From assembly GCF_044324785.1 (NCBI RefSeq), contig NZ_CP172127.1: a stretch of 64,000 bases of DNA; one strand, 5' to 3'. Source of the stretch: Escherichia coli. GTDB lineage: Bacteria; Pseudomonadota; Gammaproteobacteria; Enterobacterales; Enterobacteriaceae. Shown here piece by piece: positions 24,468 through 52,130 of the stretch (its first letter is position 1; each line of letters opens with the position of its first letter). Below the pieces are notes generated by a model. It was not told the origin of the DNA. It did no database searches and worked only from the letters and a program-made list of their open reading frames with translations. The position numbers and the translations under genes are program-made.

Positions 24468-25208
24468 ATGTCAGTTATTGGTCGCATTCACTCCTTTGAA
24501 TCCTGTGGAACCGTAGACGGCCCGGGTATTCGCTTTATCACCTTTTTCCAGGGCTGCCTGATGCGCTGCCTGTATTGTCATAACCGCGACACCTGGGATA
24601 CGCATGGCGGTAAAGAAGTTACCGTTGAAGATTTAATGAAGGAAGTGGTGACCTATCGCCACTTTATGAACGCTTCCGGCGGCGGCGTTACCGCATCCGG
24701 TGGTGAAGCAATCCTGCAAGCCGAGTTCGTTCGCGACTGGTTCCGCGCCTGCAAAAAAGAAGGCATTCATACCTGTCTGGACACTAACGGTTTTGTTCGT
24801 CGTTACGATCCAGTAATTGATGAACTTCTGGAAGTGACCGACCTGGTAATGCTCGATCTCAAACAGATGAACGACGAAATCCACCAGAATCTGGTAGGCG
24901 TTTCCAACCATCGTACACTCGAGTTTGCTAAATATCTGGCGAACAAAAATGTGAAAGTCTGGATACGTTATGTCGTAGTACCTGGCTGGTCTGACGATGA
25001 CGATTCAGCTCATCGCCTCGGTGAATTTACTCGCGATATGGGTAACGTCGAAAAAATCGAGCTCCTCCCCTACCATGAGTTAGGCAAACATAAGTGGGTG
25101 GCGATGGGCGAAGAGTACAAACTCGACGGTGTGAAACCACCGAAAAAAGAAACCATGGAGCGAGTGAAAGGGATTCTTGAGCAATATGGTCATAAAGTGA
25201 TGTTCTAA
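24468..25208 (+). CDS. pflA: Pyruvate formate-lyase activating enzyme (radical SAM)
   Basis: ORF 24441..25208; start at [20 protein letters not shown]; CxxxCxxC motif CLYCHNRD. Confidence 0.95.
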
Positions 25209-25342: not shown

Positions 25343-28300
25343 TTACCAGTCGGCGTAAGGTATCAGCGGCTGCGGCGGTAAATCCATGTCGCCCTGCCAT
25401 CCGGCGGCGGAATACCGCACGTAGAGCAGGAAATGGCTTGGCGCATAATCTTTCGCCTGCTGGATATCAATCGCCGTGCCGACAAACCAGTTGGACGTGA
25501 CGCGACGCTCAAGTAACGCCCGCGCCGTGTAGCCAAAGCCCTGACTGCTGCCGCCGTCGTTGGTCTGACTGGCGGCATCCTCTTTCCAGTCCGTCGGGAT
25601 CAGGTTCATCAGCGGATAACGCGGCATGGTTTTGGTGCGCGAATGCGACCACGAGCCAGACGCACCCAGCTCCCACGACCAGTTTTCCGTCCGCTCCCGC
25701 CACATCACCGGTATGGCAAACGACAGGTATTCCTGCGGGCTGTAGTAACCGCCCTGACCAAGTGAGTAGCCACTCAGGTCTTTGTCGTAATGCCAGATCA
25801 TATTGTTAAGACCAATGGTCACACGGCGATTATTCTGGTTGATGATCTTATAGTAATAGCCCGTCATCCAGCGCACGCGCCAGTTATCTTCGACATTTTT
25901 ACCGGTTAACTGGTCACCGCTAAGCGATGCCCAGACGCCGTTTGCTTCACCTTTATCGTAGCTCAGGCTTAGCCCCACGCCGTCGGCACGCACGCCGCCC
26001 CATTTTTTCCCGGTATTGCTCGGGGAGTCTTTTTGCCCGCCAAAGGCCAGCAAAGAACTGGAGATGGGCCGACGGTGGGCGTTAACGGTGTAACCCAGCG
26101 GCCCGATATCATCGCTGTAACTGATGCCGCCGACCACATCCACCACGTTGAAGCCCATCGGCGTGGTGCCGATATCCCAGCTCCAGACGTCATTTCGCCA
26201 GCCGACCGCCACGCTGGCACCGGAATCCGACTGGCTGCGGTTGCCGCTACAGTCCTGTAATGTACAGGTGCCCCAGTTGTCATCCCATTTGCCATCGGCA
26301 TTAGTGGAGAAACTGCCGACGTTCATATTGACGAAATCACTGCGAAAGAACATCCGCCCGTCAGAGTACGGCGCATCCACCTGCAACATGGTGGTGTGCG
26401 CTTTCAGATCGGAGTAACCACCGGTGCCGCTCGAACCCCAGTAATCGTGCTCGAGGGTGACGTTAAGATCCTGCTGGCGATAGAGGTCCGCTGCATCGCT
26501 GCGCACGCCGCGTTTCAGCCAGTCATCTTTCTCGTCGTTACGGGTCAGCCGGGTAAAGGTGTCGTTATCCTGCGGACGCGTCGTGGTCACACCGGATGCG
26601 ACCATCGCGTCTTTGTAGGTTTCCAGCGCCTGCGTTGGATCGCCCGCCTGCGCTTCAAACTTCGCACCGTCGCGCAGCACCATCGCGCTTTCCATCGACG
26701 GTGGCTGAGATTTTGCCTGCGGGATCAACTTATTAAACGTCTGCTGCGCCGCTGCGGTATCGCCAAGCTGCGCCTGCGCCAGCGCCACGCGCCGCTGAGT
26801 GTTCAGAGAGGCGTTATCAGTGGCGGGCAGTTTCGCCAGCTGGCTACGTGCCGCCGCTTTGTCACCGGCAGCAATATCCACTTCCGTCAGACCAAGAATG
26901 GCATCGGCGTTAGTTGGCTCCCGCGTCAGGACATTCTGATATGCAGCGCGAGCGGCGGTGTAATCACGTCGTTGTTGCGCCCAGTCAGCCAGCGTGAGGT
27001 CAATACGCGAGGAAGGCGGTTGCTGGCGCAGCATCGCTTCCGCTTCTGCCTCTTTGCCGCTTTCTCGCAGGCGATTAGCGGTTTCCAACACCTGATCGCT
27101 TTGCAGTCGATTAACCAGCTCCTGAATATTGCTGCTCCACTGCGCGCGCGGCAGGCTGTTGATATGCGCCAGCGCCGCTCTGTCCTGGTCATGACCAGAG
27201 AGATACAGCCCGTAAGCGTAAACCTGCTCCGGGTCGTTCGGCTTCTGCTGCGCCAGATTGCGCATTAACGTATCGGCCTGGCTGCGTTGTCCGGCCTGCC
27301 AGAGATCCTGTGAAAGTCGGTAAGTAATCCATACACTGCCGGGGTCCAGCGCCAGTCGCTGGCGCTGAAGTGCTGCTGCCTGCGCCCATTTGCCCTGTTT
27401 TTCCAGCGCTTCGGCCTGCTGTGACAAACGGTCATTTTGCAGGCTGCGTTCGATATCATCAATGCTACGCCGCTGACTGGCAGAGAGCGAGGCGATAAAC
27501 GCTTCAGCCTTTTCTGGCGATTGCTGGCGGTATATATTCGCCAGCCCGCGCACGGCGTTAGTGTTGCCGCTGTCCATACGCAAGGTCTGCTGATAATAAC
27601 GTTCGGCGGCGGGATAATCTTTTCGCGCCATCGCCACATCGCCCAGCCCCAGCACTGCATAGCTGTCGGTGTTATCGACATTACGCGCCTGCTGGAACAG
27701 GCGTTCTGCCCGGTCAGGATTATTGGCTTTCAGCGCAGCATCGCCCTGCTGGATCGCCAGCCAGTAGCGGTTTACTTTCAGGAGACTGTTCCATTTGTCG
27801 TTGTTGCTGCTGTGCGGATCCAGGGCGAGGGCTTTTTCCAGATTCGCCACCGCATTGGCGCGATCGCCTTTCTGAGAATACGCCTGGCCCAGCGCTCCAA
27901 ATATGGCACCAGAGTCAGGATTATCAATATTAAGTATTTTCAACTGACGAATCGCTTCGTTGCGACGGGAGGCAATTTGCGTCATTGCCCCCCAGTATTC
28001 CAGCGCCATTTCGATATCTGGCGGTGCACCGTTAAATAGCTTGTCGTAACTGTCGATAGCCTCTTTATGTCGCCCGGAGATAGCTTGTAAGCGTGCCATT
28101 TGCAGTGCCTGACGCCCCTCAGGCGAAGAAAGTCGCATGGCCGTGCGCGATGCTTTATATATTTTTGAATCAGGAGCGAGCAGGGAAAGTCTGGCAAGTT
28201 GTTTTTGCGCGCCTTCAATATCTCCCTTACGCAGCAGATAGCGAAAACGCGCCGCAACGACATCTGGATTATCAGGTTCCGCCAATTCAAGACGATAAAG

Positions 28301-28450
28301 CGACTGTTCGACCAGATCTTCACGATGAATGTCTTCGCCTAACCGAATCTGCGCCATTAACAGCTTGTGTGCAGTTGGTGTGGCTTTCGCCATCGACATT
28401 ACCGCCAAACCAAGGGATATTGTGAGTAAATTTAGGGTGAATTTGTACAT
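25343..28450 (-). CDS. BcsC-like exopolysaccharide export protein: N-terminal TPR repeats plus C-terminal outer-membrane beta-barrel
   Basis: 1035 aa; N-terminal signal peptide; long TPR-like repeat region; C-terminus rich in alternating aromatic/glycine strands and ending in W. Visibly more GC-rich than the genes upstream of it in the cluster. Confidence 0.8.
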   Translation of the reverse strand: MYKFTLNLLTISLGLAVMSMAKATPTAHKLLMAQIRLGEDIHREDLVEQSLYRLELAEPDNPDVVAARFRYLLRKGDIEGAQKQLARLSLLAPDSKIYKASRTAMRLSSPEGRQALQMARLQAISGRHKEAIDSYDKLFNGAPPDIEMALEYWGAMTQIASRRNEAIRQLKILNIDNPDSGAIFGALGQAYSQKGDRANAVANLEKALALDPHSSNNDKWNSLLKVNRYWLAIQQGDAALKANNPDRAERLFQQARNVDNTDSYAVLGLGDVAMARKDYPAAERYYQQTLRMDSGNTNAVRGLANIYRQQSPEKAEAFIASLSASQRRSIDDIERSLQNDRLSQQAEALEKQGKWAQAAALQRQRLALDPGSVWITYRLSQDLWQAGQRSQADTLMRNLAQQKPNDPEQVYAYGLYLSGHDQDRAALAHINSLPRAQWSSNIQELVNRLQSDQVLETANRLRESGKEAEAEAMLRQQPPSSRIDLTLADWAQQRRDYTAARAAYQNVLTREPTNADAILGLTEVDIAAGDKAAARSQLAKLPATDNASLNTQRRVALAQAQLGDTAAAQQTFNKLIPQAKSQPPSMESAMVLRDGAKFEAQAGDPTQALETYKDAMVASGVTTTRPQDNDTFTRLTRNDEKDDWLKRGVRSDAADLYRQQDLNVTLEHDYWGSSGTGGYSDLKAHTTMLQVDAPYSDGRMFFRSDFVNMNVGSFSTNADGKWDDNWGTCTLQDCSGNRSQSDSGASVAVGWRNDVWSWDIGTTPMGFNVVDVVGGISYSDDIGPLGYTVNAHRRPISSSLLAFGGQKDSPSNTGKKWGGVRADGVGLSLSYDKGEANGVWASLSGDQLTGKNVEDNWRVRWMTGYYYKIINQNNRRVTIGLNNMIWHYDKDLSGYSLGQGGYYSPQEYLSFAIPVMWRERTENWSWELGASGSWSHSRTKTMPRYPLMNLIPTDWKEDAASQTNDGGSSQGFGYTARALLERRVTSNWFVGTAIDIQQAKDYAPSHFLLYVRYSAAGWQGDMDLPPQPLIPYADW

Positions 28451-28562
28451 GCCTGCCTCAATCAGGTGTTAACTCACTTTTTATTAAAAACAGAACGGGC
28501 GCAGCTCCCTGCCTGTATAAAGTCAGGACAGAATGGAGCCGCAAAATAGAAATGATGATGAA

Positions 28563-29166
28563 TTACTGTTGATGAGGGTTCAGACGACGGCGACTAATGT
28601 TACGTAACAGACTCCATACTACCCACGCCAATAGCACCACACTGAGAGTTGCCAGCACTGCCAGTAGAATGGGATGTCTGGCTAACACATATTGCACTCG
28701 TTCAATCCAGGGGAGATGCCCAACGTAATAAGTATCTCCAACTCGTAAACTATTGATGCCAGATTCACGAATAACCGCGACTGAACCAAAAATATTGCCG
28801 CGTTTTGTACTATTAATTAACGCATTGTTGAGTAGCGTATCTCCGCGTGATCCCTCGGACATTAAAGCAATTACGCTGCGTTGGGTATGATATGGAGACT
28901 GAAAACCAACTATCGCCGCCATTGGCAATGGAGAATTTATAGTTGTTTGTATTTCAGGTTTTTGATCGTCGTTATCTGTCATAATTTTGGCGTAATCAGA
29001 GTGTCGTATTGGGCTTTTTACCCAACTTGTTGTTGCCTCAATGAGCAGATTAATTTGCTGATTGTCTGCAAATTCTTGCGGAAGTCTTCCTATTAACAGG
29101 ATATCTGAATCCTTGCCCTGGACAGAACCTATATCATCAGTAATTGTCAGATTAATTGCCGGAGAT
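28563..29166 (-). pseudogene. BcsB-like subunit, 3' fragment, separated from its 5' part by IS2
   Basis: Frame is open (no stops, checked codon by codon) from the IS2 junction at 29166 down to the stop at 28563; C-terminal TM anchor HPILLAVLATLSVVLLAWVVW...RRR typical of BcsB. In frame with the 5' fragment once IS2 and one GAGAT copy are removed. Confidence 0.8.
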
Positions 29167-29177
29167 TGGATTTGCCC

Positions 29178-30083
29178 CTATATTTCCAGACACCTGTTAT
29201 CACTTAACCCATTACTGGCCTGCTGCCGCAGATATTCCCGTGGCGAGCGATAACCCAGTGCACTATGCGGATGCCATTCGTTATAATGCTCGAACGCCTC
29301 TGCAAGGTTCTTTGCTGCCGTTAACCCGTCTGGTTTAGGCATGATACTGATGTAGTCACGCTTTATCGTTTTCACGAAGCTCTCTGCTATGCCGTTACTC
29401 TCCGGACTCCGCACCGCCGTGTTCTTCGGTTCAAGCCCCAACATCCGGGCAAACTGCCGTGTTTCATTAGCCCGGTAGCATGAACCATTATCCGTCAGCC
29501 ACTCTACTGGAGACGCCGGAAGCTCGTTGCCGAAGCGGCGTTCCACCGCTCCCAGCATTACGTCCTGTACTGTTTCACTGTCGAAGCCGCCCGTAGTGAC
29601 TGCCCAGTGCAGTGCCTCACGGTCACAGCAGTCCAGCGCGAACGTGACTCGCAGTTTTTCTCCGTTATCACAGCGGAACTCGAACCCGTCAGAGCACCAT
29701 CGTTGATTGCTTTCTTTCACGGCCACTTTGCCAGTATGTGCCCGTTTCGATGGCGGTACAGCGGTTTTTCGCTCAAGCAACAGCGCATTCTGGCGCATGA
29801 TCCGGTAAACACGTTTGGCATTGATCGCAGGCATACCATCAAGTTCGGCCTGTCTGCGAAGCAGCGCCCATACCCGACGATAACCATACGTGGGCAGCTC
29901 TCCGATAACATGGTGTATACGGAGAAGCACATCCGTATCATCTGAGTGACGGCTGCGGCGACCATCTTTCCAGTCATCGGTTCGTCTGAGAATTACGTGC
30001 AACTGCGCACGCGACACCCGGAGACAACGGCTGACTAAGCTTACTCCCCATCCCCGGGCAATAAGGGCGCGTGCGCTATCCAC
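29178..30083 (-). CDS. insD: IS2 transposase OrfB (InsD; DDE integrase domain)
   Basis: 301-aa [33 protein letters not shown]...; overlaps orfA near a T6/A6G slippery run at about 30084-30090. Confidence 0.9.
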
Positions 30084-30406
30084 TTTTTTGCACGCCCGTA
30101 TTCAACGGCTTCTTTAAGGAGTTCATTTTCCATCGTTTTTTTGCCGAGCAGGCGCTGGAGTTCTTTAATCTGCTTCATGGCAGCAGCAAGTTCAGAGGCA
30201 GGAACGACCTGCTCTCCTGCGGCCACAGCAGTAAGACTTCCCTCCTGGTATTGCTTGCGCCAGAGAAATAACTGGCTGGCTGCCACACCGTGTTGCCGGG
30301 CAACAAGGGAGACCGTCATTCCCGGTTCAAAACTCTGCTGAACAATAGCGATCTTTTCCTGTGTAGTACGCCGTCTGCGTTTCTCCGGTCCTAAGACATC
30401 AATCAT
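30041..30406 (-). CDS. insC: IS2 OrfA (InsC; helix-turn-helix)
   Basis: [40 protein letters not shown]... Confidence 0.9.
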
Positions 30407-30497
30407 CTGCTCTCCAATGACTAGTCTAAAAACTAGTATTAAGACTATCACTTATTTAAGTGATATTGGTTGTCTGGAGATTCAGGGGGCCAGTCTA

Positions 30498-32199
30498 GAG
30501 ATCCAGTTTGAGCACCAATCAGTCCAAGGGTATTTAATAATGTTTCAACTTGCGTTGTGCCAGGATTTTCAGGCATAACCACAACCGTTTCTGATAGATC
30601 GGCCATGCGGCTAAATGGAAAGCCTGAGCTGGCAAAAGCGCGTAAATCTGGCATTGCGATAAAGTGATGGTACTTTGAAAAATCGATAGTGGAATCATCT
30701 GCAATAACCGCATGATTTTTTAGCGACCGGGAAATAATACAGCTATCGGCATCAGAGCGCGGCATTGTATTAACGTACTCAAAATTAAATCGCAATTGAT
30801 TAAGCGCCCCTAACGTCAGCGCAGGAATGTTAATTTCATTATTACCATCCAACAATTCTTGCAATAACGGTAAACGTAACAATAACCTATCAGTAGCAGA
30901 TTGCGGACTCAGCCGGAAAGATTCAAGGTACTGGTTATTAAGGCTGACATCCATGCGTGAACCACCTATCGTTGGCGTGGTATAACGATAGTTAATCTTC
31001 ATCTCACCCCCACGATTACGCAATAGAAAGAGATCAGGTGGCAAATTAAATGAAACATTAATTGCCGCAGACTCCAGGGCACTTGCCTGTAACTGCCCTT
31101 CATAATTTTTAAGCTCTGCGAAAGTTACAGGACGATCAGTGCGTATCCAGTTTGGCGCATCATAAGGTTTACGCGGCAGTAACGGCTTCACGTCATTTAC
31201 GACCACGCTATCGCCGCGAAATAATATATTTCCCTGTGCAAGGCCTTTTGCCGCCTGTAATAAATCTTTATCATCGCGGCCCAAAAGTACCAGCAATTTG
31301 ACAAAGGGATTTTGTGGATGACTGATCATTTTAATAACAGGCGCATTCACCAACGGATGCTCGCGCAGAAAGTCTGGGCGTCTATTGTTCGTGGCAAAGA
31401 CTACTGCATTACTTTCCGGTAACTGGTTATAGAAAACCGGAAATCGGTGACCACGCCAGCCAGATTGCGAACCAAACCACGAAGCGACAATAGCTGATAC
31501 CTGCTGCAAACCAGTCCCAGGAGTACCGGCAAAAACCATCGGCAATGTATTAGGGCGGTTATCTCGCGGATCAAAGAACGGTACAGGAAGATATGAAAGA
31601 TCATTTTTCAAATTGAGTCTCTGAACTACCAGTTCAAGTTCACTGGTACGTCCAATATCAAGCCACAAATTGCCGCTGGTCGGGTTTTCGCAGGCGCTCT
31701 GGTAGTGACTAATTAATTCTAGGCGCAAGCGATTAAAATCCGAAAAATACAATGGGTTAAGAGTTATTTCCGCCAGCGTTTTCTTCCCCAGTTGTTCTTT
31801 GGTAATCGGCAATACCTCCATCAACTCGTCATTAAGATAGACCTTAAGCTGTGACTGGACCGGGATCAGCGACGGTGATGGAGTGTATTCAAGTTTTAGT
31901 TTCGCTTCTGACACTATTTCATCGCTACGCATACCAAACTCAATTTGCCCCTGTGGGTTAACTCCATTCAGGACTATGTTTCCTGGCGCTGGTGCGATTT
32001 GTGTAAATGGGAGTTTAAAATAGCGAGATGGCTCTTTCACATAAGCAGAGATATTTTCTTTCGGGATAGCGGGTAATACTCCGACTGAGGAAGGCTTATG
32101 AATTACTGTATCTGTAGCCGATGCTGTATTTGCCTGGTAAAAACATAGTAACCCCAAGCCAATTATTGCAGCACTTAATCTCAAAAATTTTCTTTCCAT
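30498..32199 (-). pseudogene. BcsB-like periplasmic subunit, 5' fragment, truncated by the IS2 insertion
   Basis: ORF 30448..32220 reads into IS2; probable start MERKFLRLSAAIIGLGLLCFYQANTASA (signal peptide); BcsB-like blocks such as EFGMRSDE and LKVYLNDELMEVLP. Confidence 0.8.
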
Positions 32200-32258
32200 T
32201 TTAAAAAATTCAACAACCATAATAAATACAAATAATATATTTAATTAGCAATCAGAAA

Positions 32259-34379
32259 TTAGAACTGACTTTTAGAACTGCCTTTCAGTGTCCGGAGAAT
32301 ATAAAAAACCATATTGCAATAACCTTTCAGAGAGATAAAACATATTTCAATAAAACTCTTTAAAATATTGTCTCGTTTAATTTTATCATTCCACTCTTGC
32401 CATAGTGAATCACGAGAAAACGTTGCTCTGACATAATTAACATTTTGTTCATGACTCATTGGCATAATCTTCAGACCAATTTTATTATTGTAGGCATGAA
32501 CTATTTCTACCGGTATATCACACTTTCCGTTACTATCATCCAGATAAAGAGACAACCGCTGTGTTTTAACAATATTTTTTACGTCGGAGATATTATCAAG
32601 GATAACGCCTAATCCTCCTTCGGAAAAATCAAGAACAGAACAAGGATAGCTCCGTCCATCTTCCAGTTGTATAACGCCCTTGAAAGAAACATCAATACGG
32701 GGAGAAAAACGCACCTGCTTTTGTTCAATAGAAACAGCCAAAGTTGCGCCAATAATAATTGTATTATAAAACAGCCAAATCAAACAAAAAAAATTCAGGA
32801 TGGCGATATGCCCTTGCAAACTATAAACATTAACAATACCTATTATCAGTCCAATTACATTTAAAATGGCAAAAATAAGATAGGGGTAGGAAATTCGCCA
32901 GTCAACAAACTTATTTTTTATCAGCCCTCCTTTGGCCGTAACGTTGAAACGCCCTTTTGCTGGTGCAAGTAAAGCTACAAGAGTTGGTAGCGTAATATAC
33001 CAAGCCAGAACCATTTCATAAATCTCATTCCAGAATGAATGTCTGTATTTACCCTGTACTCTTGAATTAGTTAAAATAATAACAAATAAATAAGGTAAAA
33101 CATAAGACATAATATCTGCAACCGATGCTTCGATCAGGTTGACCGAAAAGAAAATAGGACATAACGGTGCGAACAAGAAAATCAGTCGTGGCACACCTGA
33201 TAAAAAATGCATCATGCTGCTGAGATAGCAAAGGCGCTGTGATAATGTCAGCCCCTTGCCCAATAATGGATTGTCAATACGCAAGATTTGAATCATGCCT
33301 CGAGCCCATCGAATCCGTTGTCCAATATGAGCAGACAATGTTTCTGTGGCTAGCCCGGCAGCCAGAGGATAGCGAAGATATGCAGAGCTATAACCTGCAC
33401 GATGCAAGCGTAACGACGTATGCGCATCTTCAGTTACTGTTTCGACTGCAATGCCTCCAACCTCATCCAGAGCAGATCTACGGATGATTGCACATGAACC
33501 ACAAAAAAATGAAGCATTCCATGTATCCGTACCATTCTGGATTAACCCATAAAAAAGGTGTCCTTCATTTGGCTTTTGCCGAAACTGCCCCAAATTTCGC
33601 TCAAAAGGATCGGGGGAAAAAAAATGATGTGGTGTTTGCAACATCGATAATTTTTTATCTGCAATAAACCAGCCCATCGTTTTCTTTAAAAAAGATACCG
33701 AGGGTATATGATCGCAATCGAAAATAGCAACAAATTCGCCATTAGCTATTTTAAGCGCATTATTTATATTTCCGGCCTTAGCATGTTCATGTGTTTCTCT
33801 TGCGACATAGTAAATTCCTGACTCGTTCGCAAATTTCCTGAACTCATCCCTGGCGCCATCATCAAGGATCCAGATATGTAATTTATCCTTTGGCCAGTCT
33901 AAAGCCAACGCACCATAAACTGTATTCTTCACGACTGTAAAAGGTTCGTTATATGTGGGTATTAATATATCTACGATGGGCCATTCTTCTTTATTCTCTG
34001 GTAAAGGTATACTTTCTCTGTTCAGCGGGAAGCAAACCTGAAAGTAACCAAGTAATAAAACAAACCAAGCATACGTTTCAGCAGTTAATAACGTGACTGA
34101 AAATAAGCAGTCTGGAAATTCATTCAGGATGACTGAAGAAGAGTACCGCCACCATAGATATCGGGATGAGATGAGTATTCCAACACCCATTAATATCAGG
34201 GTAATCATCCTTCCCTTGAACAAATTAAGGAAAATGACAGCGATGCAAATAATAATTGAAAATAATATTTGTTGATAAAATCCAAGTGGCTGCTCAACAA
34301 TTGATAAAAAGACAAAACATAGCAATATAGCAACAACCAAAAGGATTTTGTTTAATATTTCTTTATTTTTTAAGATCAT
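32259..34379 (-). CDS. BcsA-type processive family-2 glycosyltransferase (cellulose-synthase-like) with C-terminal PilZ c-di-GMP receptor domain
   Basis: 706 aa; DDG, DCD, TED and QRIRW catalytic motifs; FFCGS; gating-loop FNVTAK; PilZ RFSPR (RxxxR) and DFSEGG (DxSxxG); multiple TM helices. Very AT-rich DNA. Confidence 0.85.
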   Translation of the reverse strand: MILKNKEILNKILLVVAILLCFVFLSIVEQPLGFYQQILFSIIICIAVIFLNLFKGRMITLILMGVGILISSRYLWWRYSSSVILNEFPDCLFSVTLLTAETYAWFVLLLGYFQVCFPLNRESIPLPENKEEWPIVDILIPTYNEPFTVVKNTVYGALALDWPKDKLHIWILDDGARDEFRKFANESGIYYVARETHEHAKAGNINNALKIANGEFVAIFDCDHIPSVSFLKKTMGWFIADKKLSMLQTPHHFFSPDPFERNLGQFRQKPNEGHLFYGLIQNGTDTWNASFFCGSCAIIRRSALDEVGGIAVETVTEDAHTSLRLHRAGYSSAYLRYPLAAGLATETLSAHIGQRIRWARGMIQILRIDNPLLGKGLTLSQRLCYLSSMMHFLSGVPRLIFLFAPLCPIFFSVNLIEASVADIMSYVLPYLFVIILTNSRVQGKYRHSFWNEIYEMVLAWYITLPTLVALLAPAKGRFNVTAKGGLIKNKFVDWRISYPYLIFAILNVIGLIIGIVNVYSLQGHIAILNFFCLIWLFYNTIIIGATLAVSIEQKQVRFSPRIDVSFKGVIQLEDGRSYPCSVLDFSEGGLGVILDNISDVKNIVKTQRLSLYLDDSNGKCDIPVEIVHAYNNKIGLKIMPMSHEQNVNYVRATFSRDSLWQEWNDKIKRDNILKSFIEICFISLKGYCNMVFYILRTLKGSSKSQF

Positions 34380-34463
34380 TATACTTAGCGATTCATTAAC
34401 AATACAGCTTGAATAGTGTGATTTTTATAAACATTGATGACCAATGCCATGCAAATTTAAATA

Positions 34464-35795
34464 TCAACACCACGTTATCTGTGCTCTGCCATTTTGCTTA
34501 CTTTTGTATAACCGTTCATCTGCCAGCAATTTCAACCGTTCAATGTTATTCATGCACTCATCTGTACTGGCAACTCCTATGCTGCAACTACAATTTAACC
34601 CACCGATTGCGAAATGAACAACTCTGTGCAAAATTCTTGATAGTTTATTTTTATCTTTCTCATAATAAATAATAGCAAACTCATCACCGCCAAACCGGTA
34701 TATTTCCCCTTCACGACGGGGTAACTCATCTTTAATAAGGTTAACAAGTTTGATGAGTACTTCATCACCAAACAGATGGCCAAACTTATCATTAATGGTT
34801 TTAAATTTATCCACATCAAATAGACACAGGTAGCCAAAATTCTTGCTCAGCATCTTGATTTCCTTATCAAAACTCCGACGACCAGAAGCCCGAGTTAATG
34901 CATCACAAGTGCCAAAGTCATATATCTCTCGAATTGCATTAATCTCTTCCGTATTAAAGAATAGATTTTCTCCACATAAATCATATTGATGATTCGATAA
35001 TATAGATTCTTTTTCCAATCTACCCTTATTTATAATATTTCGTAGTAATTTAATATAATAAACATACAGTATAACTGCAGATATTGCCGATGCAAAAACG
35101 AATAGCATACATATATAGAGATATTTACTTTTTTTATAGGCAACAATAAACATCATTTCTGGAAGGTAAGAATACGACAGAGTGATAGCTGACATCTCAA
35201 ATACAGCATCATTTATCAAAAAATCATCACCTGTGATTTTCTTTTCATTATCATTAATATCATAAAATGAGATATAGATATCTTCTCGTTCCCCTGACTG
35301 ATTTCTAATCAAAGATAAATAACGTTCAGGATCTACCACTGATATCAAAATTGTTCGTTTGGCAATGGGATGAGCATAATAAACATAGTACTTATCTTTT
35401 AAACCAATAACACCTCTCTCAAATTCGTTCATTACTCGAATAGAGGAAACTATGTCGCCACAAAAATCATCCCCTTTCGTTGTAACTTTGATACATTTAC
35501 CATCGCTAATAATATAAGGACCGAGATCATACAAATATCCAGGATTTTCATAGCCAGCAAAGCTATTGCGTATTTTTTTTACCAATTCTTCTGGGGCAAT
35601 ATCTAGTTCATAAAATATATCATTAGATACTGAGCGGCGATACTCAGAAACATTAGCTATTGCAAGCCCACTATCTACAATAGATACCTTCACCGAATTA
35701 ATGCGGCCCTTAACATAAATGGTGTATAAATAACAAGTTACTACAGCGACGAACAAAAAACAGATTACTGCCGCCTTTTTCTTATATTTGAACAT
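34464..35795 (-). CDS. Membrane-bound diguanylate cyclase (two TM helices flanking a periplasmic sensor, then GGDEF)
   Basis: 443 aa; intact RFGGDEF active-site motif; no RxxD I-site five residues upstream; about 200-aa periplasmic region containing a Cys pair. Confidence 0.8.
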   Translation of the reverse strand: MFKYKKKAAVICFLFVAVVTCYLYTIYVKGRINSVKVSIVDSGLAIANVSEYRRSVSNDIFYELDIAPEELVKKIRNSFAGYENPGYLYDLGPYIISDGKCIKVTTKGDDFCGDIVSSIRVMNEFERGVIGLKDKYYVYYAHPIAKRTILISVVDPERYLSLIRNQSGEREDIYISFYDINDNEKKITGDDFLINDAVFEMSAITLSYSYLPEMMFIVAYKKSKYLYICMLFVFASAISAVILYVYYIKLLRNIINKGRLEKESILSNHQYDLCGENLFFNTEEINAIREIYDFGTCDALTRASGRRSFDKEIKMLSKNFGYLCLFDVDKFKTINDKFGHLFGDEVLIKLVNLIKDELPRREGEIYRFGGDEFAIIYYEKDKNKLSRILHRVVHFAIGGLNCSCSIGVASTDECMNNIERLKLLADERLYKSKQNGRAQITWC

Positions 35796-35799
35796 TGCT

Positions 35800-38148
35800 T
35801 TATTTTCTTTTTTTCGGTTTGCTGTCTATATGCCATTCTGAAAACGGTAGCGGTTTCTGGTATAAGTATCCCTGAACATGAGAGAATCCTAATTTTTGCA
35901 ATTCTCTGGCCTGACTTTCAGTTTCAACACCTTCAGCTATTACCGGCATATTTTCTTCACGAGCAAGGCTGGATATAAAGTACACAATTTTGTTAGTTTC
36001 GTTGAAAATACCAGAGGTAAACTCTGAATCAATTTTAATACTATCAGGTCTTACTTTATAAAGTTTTTTCAGGTCAGCTAATCCACTACCGAAATCATCA
36101 AGAGAAATCTTGATACCGTTTTCTTTTAAAATGTTTATATTATTGTAAAAGCTATCATTTATATCTTTTACTGCTGACTCGGTGATCTCCAGACAGATTT
36201 GTTCAGCATTTACATCAAATGCATTAATTAAAGTAAGAACACGAGTGTGGAAGTCAATTTCATTTAATTGCCATGGAGAAACATTGATATGCAGGAGAAA
36301 ATCGTTAGCAACCTCATATTCACGGCTAAAGGCACCAAATTCGCTAATAGCCGTTTCGAGAATAAAATCACCCAGTTCTTTAATTAATCCTATTTCTTCA
36401 GCAACAGGTACAAAAATTGATGGCGGTATTGCCCCATTTTCGACGGATAACCAGCGGCATAACGCCTCAGCACCGACAACCCTATTATTATCCATATCAA
36501 CAATCGGTTGATATACTAAATAAAGTTCACTACTCAAAATCGCTTTTTTTATATTTCCTGCCACCCAGACCTTTTGATCAAGTTCATGAACTTTGATATC
36601 ATCATAAAACATAAATTCAGATTCTTTATTTTCCCGCATAGCTGTTAATGCCAGTTTCAACTTCCCTTCATAAATCGAAACATTTTCCCCTGAAAAAGTT
36701 TCACAAATGGCAATCTTATGAATATAAATATTTCTTATGCAAAATATATGTTCAGGGAAGTTTAAAACAGATAATCTTTCGATGAACTCTTCGCAGTGCG
36801 TGTGGCACAGCAACAAGTATGTTTCAGTTGAGAATTTTACGATATCACAATATTTTGAATATTTTTGTGAAATCTTCGATTTTATATCATTAACAATTTC
36901 ATAAAATTTCTGACTTCCATATATCGCCTCAACAAACTCTAATCCATAGATGCAAAGCATACCAACTGCCAAATAGGTTTTATTATTAGTTTCAATAACA
37001 GCCTTATTAATATAGAAACAACTTCCTTGTTCATAGGACACAAGATTAAGTAAACGGTCCATACGCTCCTTGTATTTATCACTGATATTATTAATGATTT
37101 TTTTGAGTTCAACAATTTCGCTACTATCATTTTGCACAATATCAATTGTGTCATTGCGATATACTGAGTTAGCTAATTTTTTCAGATGTTCTATTAGTTT
37201 ACTGGATTCTCGTTTAATTTTTTTTGTTATATTTTCAACGATATACCATAATAAACAGAAACAAACCAAGCCACATAAAAACATCAATGTAAAATATTTA
37301 TTGATGTTTGCATCTTCTGCTTTTTGATAGTAAAAGTAATGGAATCTGACATCAGGAAGCCTGGGGAGTGAGATAATATTGTCTGTATAGTTTCCACTAT
37401 TATTACTTATGTTATAACTTCCCGATGACTCACGGACAATAAGATGTAACATTGATTTTTCATTACCTACCATTATCCTTTTATTTTGTTCCATGAATAG
37501 AATATCAGCATCACTACCTAGTTTATTTAAAAAATTACTGAAATATTTTTCATCAAGATCCAGATGCATTAACTTCAGAGCAAATGAATCTTTTTCTTCT
37601 TCGGATGGCCGTAGTGAAAACGAAAAACATTTTTTTCCGGCAATACCATAACAATTATACCATGGTGACCATTTTGAATAAGTCCCTGCCGGTAATTTAT
37701 TCCAGGGGCGTGATTCCGGGTTAAAGTAGTTATCGCTAATATTACCATCGTCCCCAATAAAAGGTTTGCCGGCTTCTGATTTCCCCAGGAATTTTACCTC
37801 ACCATCCTCAGTTCGAATAAAGCTAAGATAGTTTCCATTATTGAGCATTATCCCTACTAAATTAACAGCGTCTATTTTTTTCATGCGATGAAGGACTGCT
37901 CGCTTTATTTCACCTTCATCATTTAACAGATAAATTGCATCTTTTAATGCATCAGCCTCTTTTTCAACTTTAGAAAAAAAATTATTCAAATTGTTATTGA
38001 TGAGTATAAGGTTAATCCGTGAAGAGTTTTCTGCTATTTTTTTATGGAAGTCAATTGCGGTAATAAATGAAAAGACAATATAGACAGTAACAGCTAATAT
38101 AACCGCAGTGTTAAATCTTGAGTTTAATTTTTCGGTAATGCTATACAT
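35800..38148 (-). CDS. Membrane-bound c-di-GMP phosphodiesterase (periplasmic sensor, degenerate GGDEF-like linker, EAL)
   Basis: 782 aa; EAL-domain residues present (GAEALCRW, QICLEITES, ISLDDFGSG, IKIDSEF, AEGVETE, VQGYLYQKP); no GGDEF motif in the middle domain; two TM helices flank a roughly 250-aa periplasmic region. Confidence 0.8.
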   Translation of the reverse strand: MYSITEKLNSRFNTAVILAVTVYIVFSFITAIDFHKKIAENSSRINLILINNNLNNFFSKVEKEADALKDAIYLLNDEGEIKRAVLHRMKKIDAVNLVGIMLNNGNYLSFIRTEDGEVKFLGKSEAGKPFIGDDGNISDNYFNPESRPWNKLPAGTYSKWSPWYNCYGIAGKKCFSFSLRPSEEEKDSFALKLMHLDLDEKYFSNFLNKLGSDADILFMEQNKRIMVGNEKSMLHLIVRESSGSYNISNNSGNYTDNIISLPRLPDVRFHYFYYQKAEDANINKYFTLMFLCGLVCFCLLWYIVENITKKIKRESSKLIEHLKKLANSVYRNDTIDIVQNDSSEIVELKKIINNISDKYKERMDRLLNLVSYEQGSCFYINKAVIETNNKTYLAVGMLCIYGLEFVEAIYGSQKFYEIVNDIKSKISQKYSKYCDIVKFSTETYLLLCHTHCEEFIERLSVLNFPEHIFCIRNIYIHKIAICETFSGENVSIYEGKLKLALTAMRENKESEFMFYDDIKVHELDQKVWVAGNIKKAILSSELYLVYQPIVDMDNNRVVGAEALCRWLSVENGAIPPSIFVPVAEEIGLIKELGDFILETAISEFGAFSREYEVANDFLLHINVSPWQLNEIDFHTRVLTLINAFDVNAEQICLEITESAVKDINDSFYNNINILKENGIKISLDDFGSGLADLKKLYKVRPDSIKIDSEFTSGIFNETNKIVYFISSLAREENMPVIAEGVETESQARELQKLGFSHVQGYLYQKPLPFSEWHIDSKPKKRK

Positions 38149-39247
38149 ACTGGTGTTCTGACTAAAATGTTATCAATAGCTTTAATATAAGATCGTATAA
38201 AGTTCTGTATATTAGCCGATGTTACCCTCCTCTTTATGACTTTCTTAATTTCATTATCCCCATATAACAAATATGTCATGATGAGAAGATTAATTTTTTC
38301 TTAATTTCCACAAGTGATTATCATGCTTCTTATTTTAACCAGAACAATATTGTTATATGTAACACTCATCTTTGTATCTTTCACCCACGCTACCGCCTTT
38401 CGTTAATCATTCAACGAAATAATTTAGATATGAAAAAATTACCCTGTAACAACACAACTAGCACATCCTGCCGAGTTGTGACATCTACTCTATAATTATC
38501 CAAAAGAGGTATTAGTATCTATTGTCAGTAATCCATTCTGTTTATTTATCTTATTTAAGACATGTGTAATACGACTCTCTTAGCCCAAATATATTAATCA
38601 GTAACTTTAAAGTAAGATTTAGTCAGAAAGTGATCGTGAAAATTTCACTGCCCAGGCTGTAATTTGTCCATCAACCTAACAGATAAATATTTTCAGGAAC
38701 ACACGTTCGATAAAACAATAGATGCAACATTAGAGCACTATTTTATTTTTAAAACAAAAGACTGTGAACTACACCAGGCATGAGAAGATTCTGTCGTGAG
38801 ATGATTTTTTCCAGATTAAAACACTATAAAATATAACTTTTACAGAATATTACGCCAGTAAATCAATATGCCATCTGCATATTCAAACAATAACTGCAAT
38901 CATTCTCAGCAAATTTAACCATAATTAGCAACGTGCAAATTCATTGATGCAGATCAAAAATCCGAGTTTACATTACCAATCTTTGTTGAAAATTTAGCCG
39001 TAAAAATCATGTTATTACTATACGCAAGAGTTTACTCCAGAGCCCAAAATAATAACTTGCAAAATAACCAATAATTAAAACTATCACCATATCTAAAAAT
39101 AAAGGTCTCCGATAACTAAAATTCGTATTATCACGGTAGCGTTGATATTCTTCCATCTCTTAAGAAAAACTTAACTTTTACCCTATCAGGCCTGATCTAA
39201 TTTTAAACTATTTGATATCATAGCCCCGGCGAACCGGGGCATGATGA

Positions 39248-40678
39248 CTATTTTGTATTCGCTTTACGTGCAAGCAGCGGGAATATCAGCCCCAGTCCAA
39301 CGAGGACAAATGGCGTAGTTATGTTCAGTGCCAATTGGAATGTCCACTCTGCAGTGAAGGCTTCCATTTTAGGGAAAATTCCTGTCAGGCAGGCAAAAGC
39401 GGTAAAGGCAAAACACCAAATTCCGACGGTCATTGCCAGCGGCTTATTACGAATAAAGACATATTCCGGCTTATATTTCTGCGCCAGGCGAACAACTGCA
39501 ATAAATGCAACAAATACCCATAAATAACGCAGCGGCATCACTACCGAGTTAAGATTCAACAGCCATTTATAGAGATTGTTCATATCACCAATGCCGAGAG
39601 TCGGCAGCATTATCAGGATCGCCACCAGCACCAGGGTCAGAAAATAGCCATTAACGGGCGTACCAGAAGCGTTGGTACGACATAAACTGGCTGGAATATA
39701 TTTGCTGTCAGCATCGCCTAATAACACTTTAAGCGGCGCATCAATCGAGAATACCAGCGCAGCTACTTGTCCCAGGGTATTCGCAATGGCATAAATCACC
39801 ATTAAAGTATTACCCATGTTGTAATACTCGCCCAGCTTCTGAAAGGCGTAATACTGACCGTTAGTCATTAAGTCATCCGGGATATTACGCGAGTCAAACA
39901 TCATCCCCATCGCCAGTGAGCCCAGAATGGCACAAACCGCAACCATCACCGCCAGACATAACATCCCTTTTGGAAATTCTTTTCCTGGGTTGCGCGTTTG
40001 ATTAACGTAAGGAGAAATCTTCTCTGCTCCGCCAACCGCGAAAACCAGCATTGAAATAGTGGTAATGTAGGTAAAGTCGATATGAGGAATGAACGTTTCC
40101 CAGGTAATGTTTGTGGTCGCAATATGCACTTCAGTAATCGCAGGCGCGGTTACCGCCATCGCCACATACAGGAGCGACATAACAAACATCGCAATCCCTG
40201 CCACAGAACCGACGATTTTCAGCGATTTCATACCGCGTGAAGCAACCCACATAAAGAAGATAAACAGCACCAGCGTTAACCCCTGTAACGCTACGACTGA
40301 ATATTCTTTGATTAGCGAACCGTCGCCTTTCATCGCCCAACCGAGCGCAATCAGTATTGCCTGGGGTTTTTGTGCCAGATAGGGAATATGCACTACCCAG
40401 TAGGTCCACGCGGCGAGGTAAGCCAGTCCGGGTCCCATCGTGTGTTTAATCCAGGTACTGACCCCGCCCTTCCCATCTTTGAAGGTCGAGCCTAACTGAC
40501 CAACAATTAGCGCATAAGGTGTGAAATAGAGCGCAAAGATAAACACCCACGAAAAAACAACCACCAGCCCCTGGTTGGCGTAGTTATTAACAACGTTGCC
40601 AAAACCCCAGACAGTGATAAAAGACATCAGCGCAATGTTGTACCATCGCAGCTGTTTTTCCTGAACATTCCCAGCCAT
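39248..40678 (-). CDS. ycaM: APC-family amino-acid/polyamine transporter YcaM
   Basis: ORF 39248..40870; likely start at the internal MAGNVQEKQLRWYNIALMSF...; polytopic membrane protein. Confidence 0.85.
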   Translation of the reverse strand: MAGNVQEKQLRWYNIALMSFITVWGFGNVVNNYANQGLVVVFSWVFIFALYFTPYALIVGQLGSTFKDGKGGVSTWIKHTMGPGLAYLAAWTYWVVHIPYLAQKPQAILIALGWAMKGDGSLIKEYSVVALQGLTLVLFIFFMWVASRGMKSLKIVGSVAGIAMFVMSLLYVAMAVTAPAITEVHIATTNITWETFIPHIDFTYITTISMLVFAVGGAEKISPYVNQTRNPGKEFPKGMLCLAVMVAVCAILGSLAMGMMFDSRNIPDDLMTNGQYYAFQKLGEYYNMGNTLMVIYAIANTLGQVAALVFSIDAPLKVLLGDADSKYIPASLCRTNASGTPVNGYFLTLVLVAILIMLPTLGIGDMNNLYKWLLNLNSVVMPLRYLWVFVAFIAVVRLAQKYKPEYVFIRNKPLAMTVGIWCFAFTAFACLTGIFPKMEAFTAEWTFQLALNITTPFVLVGLGLIFPLLARKANTK

Positions 40679-50666: not shown

Positions 50667-51421
<755 letters not shown>

Positions 51422-51525
51422 ATCAGCATACTTGTCCTTAGCCTTCTGCAGTGACAGCTGGTAGTACAGCGTGCTTCTGGCCAGCCCTGCAGCCTTTAAC
51501 AGGTCAGACTGGCAGTGTCCGCACC

Positions 51526-52047
51526 TCAGGCTCCGGATGACTTTCGTTTTTTCTCCAGCTCCTGGCGCTTTTTTTCCAGGAGATGCTCCTGCATGGCTTT
51601 CAGATATGCATTTTCTGCGCGAAGATAACGCAGCTCATTCTTCATCTCTTCCGGCGTCATGTTTGCCTCGTTTTCATGGGTATCATCAGAACGGGTCATG
51701 CTTTTCTCCTTCCTGCGCCTGATAAAGGCCTCATTACCAGATTTGCGGTAGCCTTTTATCCAGTTTTTAACCGTGTTGTGGCTGGGAATGTTAAACCGGG
51801 CAGCTACCCGGGGTAGAGACTCAGAATGCCCGAGAGCATAAAGAACCACGCAAAGTTTATCTTCAGGAGAATAGCTACGCTTGTGTCTGCAATCCAGTGC
51901 CCGAGGACCGTGAAGAAGAAAAAGATTAATCCAGTGTGAGAGGCTGGTGTGAGAAAGTTGAAAGAGTTTTGCCGTAGAAATGATGCCTGCATGACCAGCC
52001 AGGTAATGATTTACAGCGGCAAGTTTTACTTCAAATGAATGTTTCAT
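51526..52047 (-). CDS. insJ: IS150 OrfA (InsJ; helix-turn-helix)
   Basis: MKHSFEVKLAAVNHYLAGHAGIISTAKLFQLSHTSLSHWINLF... Confidence 0.85.
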   Translation of the reverse strand: MKHSFEVKLAAVNHYLAGHAGIISTAKLFQLSHTSLSHWINLFLLHGPRALDCRHKRSYSPEDKLCVVLYALGHSESLPRVAARFNIPSHNTVKNWIKGYRKSGNEAFIRRRKEKSMTRSDDTHENEANMTPEEMKNELRYLRAENAYLKAMQEHLLEKKRQELEKKRKSSGA

Positions 52048-52130
52048 AAACTGCACCTTCAGATGTCAGATTATGTCCAACATTTGGGGTGCAGTTCATA
52101 CCGCGCCTTATCCGGCCTACGATGCATTAA

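Follow-up and report, generated by a model that had tools for sequence, protein, structure and literature searches.

What occupies the long stretch of DNA that separates an accessory cellulose operon from its neighbour ycaM in Escherichia coli? The question is raised by the 64-kb sequence analysed here as a whole (the window), in which an island operon with the order CHASE9-EAL, GAPES2-GGDEF, bcsA, bcsB and bcsC sits between pflA and ycaM. The gap in question (38149-39247, minus strand) is the 1099 bp bounded on one side by the start codon (ATG) of the EAL gene, which occupies 35800-38148 on the minus strand, and on the other by the stop codon of ycaM at 39248. It is the non-coding upstream region of the EAL-GGDEF-bcsABC operon and holds a predicted promoter, a leader and an upstream conserved block. 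From sequence comparison we consider it probable that the gap consists of the promoter and a long untranslated RfaH/ops-type leader of this horizontally acquired accessory operon for cellulose and cyclic di-GMP (c-di-GMP), which would then be a new member of the RfaH regulon. RfaH is known for lipopolysaccharide, capsule, haemolysin and conjugation operons and, more recently, for type VI secretion operons. If the proposal is correct, the regulon extends to a biofilm-matrix and second-messenger module, in which a cellulose synthase is combined with its own c-di-GMP cyclase and phosphodiesterase.

The ops element and its conservation

The decisive feature of the gap, overlooked in the first-pass annotation, is an exact ops element at 38386-38397. 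The sequence GGCGGTAGCGTG, on the minus strand and hence on the operon non-template strand, matches ops12 (PMC5995543) at 12 of 12 positions and fits the consensus GGCGGTAGnnTG (PMC9562583). At ops, RNA polymerase pauses with the non-template strand exposed for RfaH, and all RfaH operons carry the element in their leader (PMC5995543). In the window, 237 nt separate ops from the EAL start codon. No conserved open reading frame (ORF) covers the element, which therefore lies in untranslated sequence. The exact site is unique in the window, where at most 0.26 sites with up to one mismatch are expected on both strands, and the probability of finding the exact 12-mer by chance on the correct strand within 1.1 kb is about 7e-5. 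Each of 10 island loci has a single copy of the motif GGCGGTAGNNTG, located in the homologous part of the leader, and the leaders of K-12 waaQ and rfb, which served as positive controls, have one copy each. The motif is found neither in the K-12 ycaM-pflA region, nor in the K-12-type pdeI-dgcI region, nor in a plasmid bcs2 cluster. Of 5426 complete E. coli genomes, 5425 have the rfaH gene itself, whose locus is outside the window, so that at least 8 of the 9 genomes carrying the gap possess it.

The sole one-mismatch site in the window, GGCGATAGCGTG (31204-31215, minus strand), is located inside bcsB. It carries G5A, a substitution that, like G4C and G8C, abolishes RfaH recruitment (PMC5995543), and because of this substitution and its location in coding sequence it is presumably inert. 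Two mutually related metagenome contigs of Ga0123355, L007 (332-351) and L011 (1033-1052), share a 20-mer that includes ops, GAAAGGCGGTAGCGTGGGTG. This 20-mer is part of a motif of ~70 nt (..ACGACTGAAAGGCGGTAGCGTGGGTGCGGAATA..CAGCGAA.CGGA..). The contigs have nothing else in common with the island, and Rfam gives no match for them; in L011 the motif is not followed by a gene on that strand. It may be an unknown element, or the resemblance may be due to chance.

Conservation was assessed in three diverged lineages: two E. coli clades (A and B) and E. fergusonii, in which the copy occupies a different locus. Metagenome and genome scans yielded further members of the same two clades only. Nine of the 5426 complete E. 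coli genomes contain the gap, with an identity of 100% in one genome, 93.6% in another and ~74.5% in the other seven. The gap of the window is 100% identical to that of E. coli N3, and the length is 1097-1099 bp in both clades. Between clades A and B the island genes are 83-88% identical at the DNA level and 58-66% identical at 4-fold degenerate sites, compared to 92-94% at such sites in the flanking core genes. The gap itself has an identity of 74-76%; 278 substitutions and 11 indel events separate the clades here, and conservation is patchy, with runs of 42, 26, 26, 18 and 17 nt invariant between the clades. The E. fergusonii copy (GCA_020168615.1) was identified in a protein search by an EAL homologue 68% identical to that of the window. 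Ahead of this gene lies ~1.08 kb (~1085 bp) of ORF-free AT-rich DNA, ~50% identical to the gap, with an exact ops 203 nt ahead of the ATG. The longest run invariant in all lineages, ACGAAAGGCGGTAGCGTGGG (20 nt, 38403-38384), contains ops; the second, AAAATAAAAT, corresponds to the -10 region of the predicted promoter, and the third to the start-codon region. In these alignments the putative promoter, ops and the initiation region leave a clean phylogenetic footprint.

A stem-loop, UUUCGUUGA-AUGA-UUAACGAAA (38398-38419, minus strand), directly adjoins the 5′ side of ops, so that on the operon strand the order is UUUCGUUGA-AUGA-UUAACGAAA, then GGCGGTAGCGTG, then GGTG. Its stem is invariant and its loop varies between the E. 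coli clades, and the fold has a z score of ~-2. E. fergusonii has a 6-bp stem (TTTCGT/ACGAAA) and another loop at this place. A hairpin also adjoins ops in the K-12 JUMPStart elements, with a sequence unrelated to that of the island stem-loop, which may have a role in the putative leader. More generally, the ops/JUMPStart leaders of waaQ, rfb, kps, cps/wza, hlyCABD and tra share with the island an exact 12-nt non-template ops in an untranslated leader, a single copy per operon and an adjoining hairpin. Like the island, these operons are long, AT-rich and horizontally acquired, produce a secreted or envelope polymer and begin with a gene that lacks a Shine-Dalgarno (SD) sequence. The cargo differs, since bcsABC together with a c-di-GMP phosphodiesterase and a cyclase is not placed in the RfaH regulon by the papers searched. 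The hlyCABD leader of uropathogenic E. coli (PMC6775461; PMC9765446) is also very long, with ops far from the start codon and a degenerate promoter, in DNA that is AT-rich and bound by H-NS. However, the island leader is shorter (~585 nt predicted, compared to 1,616 nt) and shows no similarity to it outside ops.

Predicted promoter, leader and mode of action

The first-pass annotation had placed the promoter of the cluster in the gap, and the prediction agrees with it in all three lineages. The top match of a promoter scan in the window is a σ70-like site, TTCACA-N17-TAAAAT (38768->38740, minus strand), which is also the best conserved position weight matrix match in both E. coli clades. In E. 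fergusonii the top match is independently TTCACA-17-TAAAAT, with the same hexamers and the same spacing. This putative promoter is located ~335 nt upstream of ops. Transcription would start near 38733, giving a predicted leader of ~585 nt with ops at ~+337 and the EAL ATG at ~+586. Transcription-factor boxes (RcsB, Fur, SlyA, CRP and σ54) were compared with the region, and none fitted well enough to be claimed. Between 37900 and 39500, σ70-like sites number 2, fewer than the 7.6 +/- 2.8 expected from dinucleotide shuffles. Selection that keeps spurious promoters out of the leader could explain this shortage, as could chance; in E. fergusonii there is no depletion (6 sites, 6.7 expected).

The EAL translation-initiation region (38100-38190, minus strand) has no SD sequence and is highly conserved, with 87-97% of columns invariant, above the coding average. 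The sequence TATGTATAG within it is invariant across all lineages. The best anti-SD duplex amounts to +0.2 kcal/mol for the EAL gene, compared to -5.5 kcal/mol for ycaM. In RfaH-controlled operons, RfaH recruits 30S subunits to SD-less leaders (PMC5995543).

These elements can be combined into a tentative mechanism. The σ70 promoter TTCACA-17-TAAAAT would start the ~585-nt untranslated leader, and RNA polymerase would pause at ops, ~337 nt in, with the element exposed in the non-template strand. RfaH would bind there, displace NusG and remain on the elongation complex. It could then suppress Rho-dependent termination as well as H-NS/StpA elongation blocks across the AT-rich operon, which measures 12.7 kb excluding an insertion sequence (IS), and could help ribosomes to load on the SD-less first gene. 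In E. coli CFT073, all eight non-template leader ops sites bound RfaH, all of them in AT-rich envelope operons bound by H-NS/StpA, and RfaH acts there as an elongation counter-silencer (PMC9765446). The island operon fits this class, because it is long, low in GC on its promoter-proximal side (7 kb at 32-38% GC) and codes for machinery that makes an exopolysaccharide. In the hly operon the leader measures 1,616 nt and ops lies 634 bp ahead of hlyC (PMC6775461), so that long leaders with a distant ops have a precedent.

Several points weigh against this interpretation. The promoter and the transcription start are predictions, and the independent lineages number only three. Of the canonical 39-bp JUMPStart, the half that precedes ops (..GGTAGCTGT..AGCC.GGG) is missing and not conserved, and alignment with K-12 waaQ and rfb shows only the ops 12-mer in common. 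Moreover, ops is 237 nt from the start codon, compared to 75-76 nt in K-12 waaQ and rfb and to a range of 40-76 nt when rfb, waa and kps are considered together; the hly operon is a precedent for a long distance, but there the distance weakened the measured RfaH effect (PMC9765446). Signals of RNA structure in the leader are weak, the whole leader having z scores of -0.6 to -1.2 on the operon strand with one or two compensatory pairs. Finally, the literature search found no paper tying RfaH to bcs operons, which is an absence of prior support rather than a contradiction.

The composition of the gap bears on a first alternative, in which it would be an ordinary AT-rich promoter spacer silenced by H-NS, acting only through sites for transcription factors and nucleoid proteins, with an ops that is incidental or non-functional, being either untranscribed or unable to recruit RfaH. 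The gap has a GC content of 0.317, compared to 0.489 for the window, 0.49-0.51 for the flanks, 0.330 for the EAL gene, 0.339 for the GGDEF gene and 0.375 for bcsA, and A/T runs of at least 4 occur at 24.6 per kb, compared to 26.4 per kb in the EAL gene. The description of the gap as extremely AT-rich is thus true relative to the genome but not relative to the island. That the gap is as AT-rich as the remaining promoter-proximal island agrees with a mere spacer, as do four near-matches to the H-NS motif TCGATAAATT in the gap and the incomplete JUMPStart. In addition, 34 of the 42 ops-like sites in CFT073 showed no RfaH binding; however, these non-binding sites were all within coding regions, whereas the leader sites were all bound (PMC9765446). 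The low chance expectation for a correctly oriented 12-mer also speaks against an incidental ops, and so does the fact that, in three lineages sharing 50-75% identity elsewhere, no other element is as well conserved as ops. Nor does the gap have a curvature or phasing signal of its own: no AA/TT periodicity at 10-11 bp and no helical phasing were found. We therefore regard a simple spacer as unlikely.

Silencing by H-NS is a separate matter, which is compatible with an RfaH-type leader. The AT content of the region is well over the genome average, and region-specific curvature, phased A-tracts and motif enrichment were not found, motif density following AT content. The earlier proposal of an H-NS-type silencing region in the gap is therefore plausible, given the 7 kb at low GC and the mapped RfaH operons of CFT073, all of which are bound by H-NS/StpA (PMC9765446); the gap has no special curvature or A-tract signal. 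The AT-rich operon as a whole is probably silenced by H-NS, which would bind to it.

RNA structure in the putative leader was examined on several scales. Sliding RNAalifold windows with column shuffles revealed only the hairpin next to ycaM and modest local signals, and a large structured RNA was rejected. The whole-leader z score lacks significance on the operon strand and is, oddly, stronger on the antisense strand. A weak candidate hairpin (38227-38288, minus strand) pairs the SD-like GAGGAG (38232->38227) with CUUCUC (38288->38283) and is extended by AUGAC/GUCAU. Its arms are conserved and its loop varies, with one compensatory pair (C-G to U-A) and z scores of -1 to -2; in E. fergusonii this region could not be aligned. 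A 15-bp duplex (38154-38168/38332-38346) that would occlude the start site over a long range was also rejected, being predicted in the window and in MS21-1 only (2 of 4 lineages). The long regulatory regions or leaders of the csgD/rpoS type are comparable in that unusually long non-coding DNA precedes a biofilm-matrix determinant, with a conserved initiation region and possible self-pairing. They differ in that there is no sequence relation, the self-pairing of the island is predicted in 2 of 4 lineages, and it is ops that defines the island leader.

Coding capacity of the gap, block D and the junction hairpin

The earlier observation that no ORF of 60 aa or more lies between the EAL start and the ycaM stop holds. 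The largest ORFs in the 1099 bp, both on the minus strand, measure 51 aa (38124-38279, which overlaps the start of the EAL gene) and 49 aa (39007-39156). The gap is the longest stretch of the window that is not covered by an ORF of at least 100 aa, the median length of such stretches being 117 bp. None of its ORFs is conserved and none shows third-position bias. Pfam searches with all long stop-free stretches of the gap gave nothing significant, only weak matches with E values of 0.005-0.08.

Individual short ORFs were considered and rejected. A 21-aa ORF starting ATGAAAAAATTACCC (38430-38495, plus strand) had been put forward as a leader peptide. It is antisense to the operon, and in MS21-1 (clade B) it reads MKKSIYDA and then stops, i.e. 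after 8 codons. On the operon strand there is no conserved ORF that could serve as a leader peptide or attenuator. The 49-aa ORF, which overlaps the block D described below, is uninterrupted in four clade-A sequences and resembles a single-pass membrane peptide. However, it is frameshifted in clade B, its SD sequence abuts the ATG, and no homologues beyond its own cluster were found among 5.8 billion proteins. A plus-strand ORF of 30-35 aa (38314-38406) is frameshifted in the window, and its differences are distributed over the codon positions as 7/6/7, so that it is not under coding selection.

The suggestion that the gap holds a small RNA (sRNA) fared no better in an Rfam cmscan of 37500-39800, where even at E <= 1 only two sub-threshold chance matches (a CRISPR repeat and a snoRNA) were obtained. 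No known sRNA or riboswitch family was detected in the gap, the c-di-GMP-I and c-di-GMP-II riboswitches included. A likeness of GGUAGCGUGGGU to part of the c-di-GMP-I riboswitch was dropped after the scan gave nothing relevant.

On the ycaM side, the gap contains a conserved upstream block, block D (39045-39180, no strand assigned), ~280-410 bp upstream of the predicted transcription start. Although the clades differ at ~38% of neutral sites, they share runs of 42 nt (39087-39046) and 26 nt (39136-39111) in this block, a conservation at the nucleotide level beyond coding needs. In E. fergusonii only fragments of it are found (GTGATA and AATTTTAG). Two similar units, GTGATA-N12/13-GTTAT, are present 46 nt apart (39134->39111 and 39087->39064), together with an inverted repeat TTAAG-N5-CTTAA (39173->39159). 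The block fits no known binding-site consensus convincingly, no RNA structure is predicted on either strand (z > 0), and no conserved promoter or terminator is adjacent. Block D may serve as an alternative promoter, or as an upstream region to which a regulator binds. A more elaborate possibility, which we hold to be distinctly unlikely, is that it represents an undescribed island-specific cis-element or unstructured RNA which, together with the ops hairpin and the SD-like/anti-SD and start-site pairings, couples RfaH loading to a signal-dependent switch; a regulator or RNA answering the same cue as the CHASE9 and GAPES2 sensors would be an example. If this were true, the combination would provide a new gating of the c-di-GMP/cellulose module at transcript elongation.

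Just past the ycaM stop, a GC-rich hairpin (39217-39246, no strand assigned), with the core GCCCCGGCGAACCGGGGC at 39223-39240, has a UUCG loop on the ycaM strand, a ΔG of ~-20 kcal/mol and z scores of -3.3 to -3.7. It had already been noticed in the first-pass annotation, with coordinates one base off (39222-39239). The hairpin is identical in both E. coli clades and absent from the K-12 junction and from the E. fergusonii copy, and a T-run follows it on the plus strand only. It is a junction element or a ycaM 3′ hairpin.

These observations bear on a second alternative, in which the gap would house an independent small gene: an sRNA, either a processed leader fragment like RirA or a transcript of block D, or a small membrane peptide encoded by the 49-aa or the 30-35-aa ORF. 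In its favour, the K-12 annotation has the sRNA RirA in the ops-containing waaQ leader, the conservation of block D exceeds a coding requirement, the 49-aa ORF of clade A has the look of a membrane peptide, and the GC hairpin has the orientation of an intrinsic terminator that would act on transcripts of the plus strand. Yet Rfam is empty in this region, block D is unstructured on both strands and has neither conserved promoter nor terminator beside it, and both ORFs suffer from the frameshifts and other defects described above, with weak Pfam matches only. An independent small gene is therefore very unlikely.

A third alternative is that the gap is decayed coding sequence, from ycaN/ycaK or from a lost island gene, as had been envisaged for remnants of the replaced genes. 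The island does replace ycaN-ycaK, the genes of K-12 at the same place, and the plus strand holds a 75-codon stop-free stretch. However, chance alone would yield ~0.3 stretches of this length, stops occur every 10-18 codons in all six frames, and the stop-free segments have no significant Pfam match. Moreover, no trace of ycaN or ycaK was found anywhere in the island, blastn (word size 7) and tblastn (E <= 100) giving chance-level matches only, and the same non-coding region accompanies the cluster at the unrelated E. fergusonii locus. We find decay hardly credible, and retain an RfaH/ops-type leader as the probable content of the gap.

Neighbouring genes, distribution and origin of the island

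The first gene of the operon (35800-38148, minus strand) encodes a CHASE9-EAL phosphodiesterase of 782 aa, similar to PdeI/YliE, with Pfam E values of 6e-39 for CHASE9 and 2e-64 for EAL, in agreement with the RefSeq annotation in N3, MS21-1 and 06-00048. The second gene encodes GAPES2 and GGDEF domains (DgcI/YliF-like), and BcsA carries a PilZ domain. In all nine carriers, RefSeq shows the same arrangement (pflA / bcsC bcsB bcsA GGDEF EAL / gap / ycaM), with the gap unannotated. In E. fergusonii the cluster EAL-GGDEF-bcsA-bcsB (L020, 8916-18080) is located between a TetR-family gene and yedF/yedE-yedD-amyA-fliT, and has no adjacent bcsC.

Accessory bcs2 and bcs3 clusters with yliE/yliF homologues have been described (bioRxiv 10.1101/2025.05.09.653004) and resemble the island, being Escherichia-restricted and combining chromosomal bcsABC with CHASE9-EAL and GAPES2-GGDEF genes. 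That report makes no mention of promoters, upstream regions, RfaH or H-NS. The plasmid-borne bcs2 cluster examined here differs from the island. In this cluster, the closest plasmid bcsA cluster, the upstream context is unrelated, with 50% GC, and contains no ops. A blastn search of the gap against 72,556 plasmids gave no match, and the best plasmid match to the EAL gene is a K-12-type pdeI. On a question about which existing island descriptions are silent, the putative ops leader offers a testable explanation for the expression of an AT-rich, probably H-NS-silenced bcs island, and it is relevant to anyone seeking a phenotype from accessory bcs clusters. Its scope is limited by the rarity of the island (9/5426) and, in the window, by an IS that interrupts bcsB.

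The homology to K-12 stops exactly at the ycaM and pflA stop codons. Identity to K-12 starts at 97-100% and declines to 80-91% within the final 200 nt of ycaM (39248-39450) and to 86-92% within the final 400 nt of pflA (24800-25208). Direct or inverted repeats were not found at the island ends, and site-specific integration was rejected on this ground. The decay of identity in the ends of ycaM and pflA and the repeat-free island ends point to a diverged lineage as the source of the island, which would have been imported through homologous recombination with crossovers within ycaM and pflA. Along the island (25343-39247) the GC content follows a gradient, from 0.567 in bcsC through ~0.43 in bcsB to the values given above for bcsA, GGDEF, EAL and the gap, which suggests a mosaic origin.

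The IS in bcsB is an IS3-family (IS2-like) element of 1331 bp (29167-30497), one end of which reads TGGATTTGCCCC. It encodes a 301-aa rve integrase ORF (29178-30083, minus strand) and is missing from N3, 06-00048, MS21-1, E69 and the metagenome contigs. By this insertion bcsB is reduced to a 590-aa ORF, and the accessory operon is therefore probably inactive in the window strain. The window is a close relative of N3 (99.5% identity over 20 kb) and not N3 itself, as it differs by a second insertion of 1432 bp (50667-52098) between lolA and ftsK. Two transposase-like ORFs of 176 aa and 240 aa overlap each other within this insertion, which looks like another IS3-family element.

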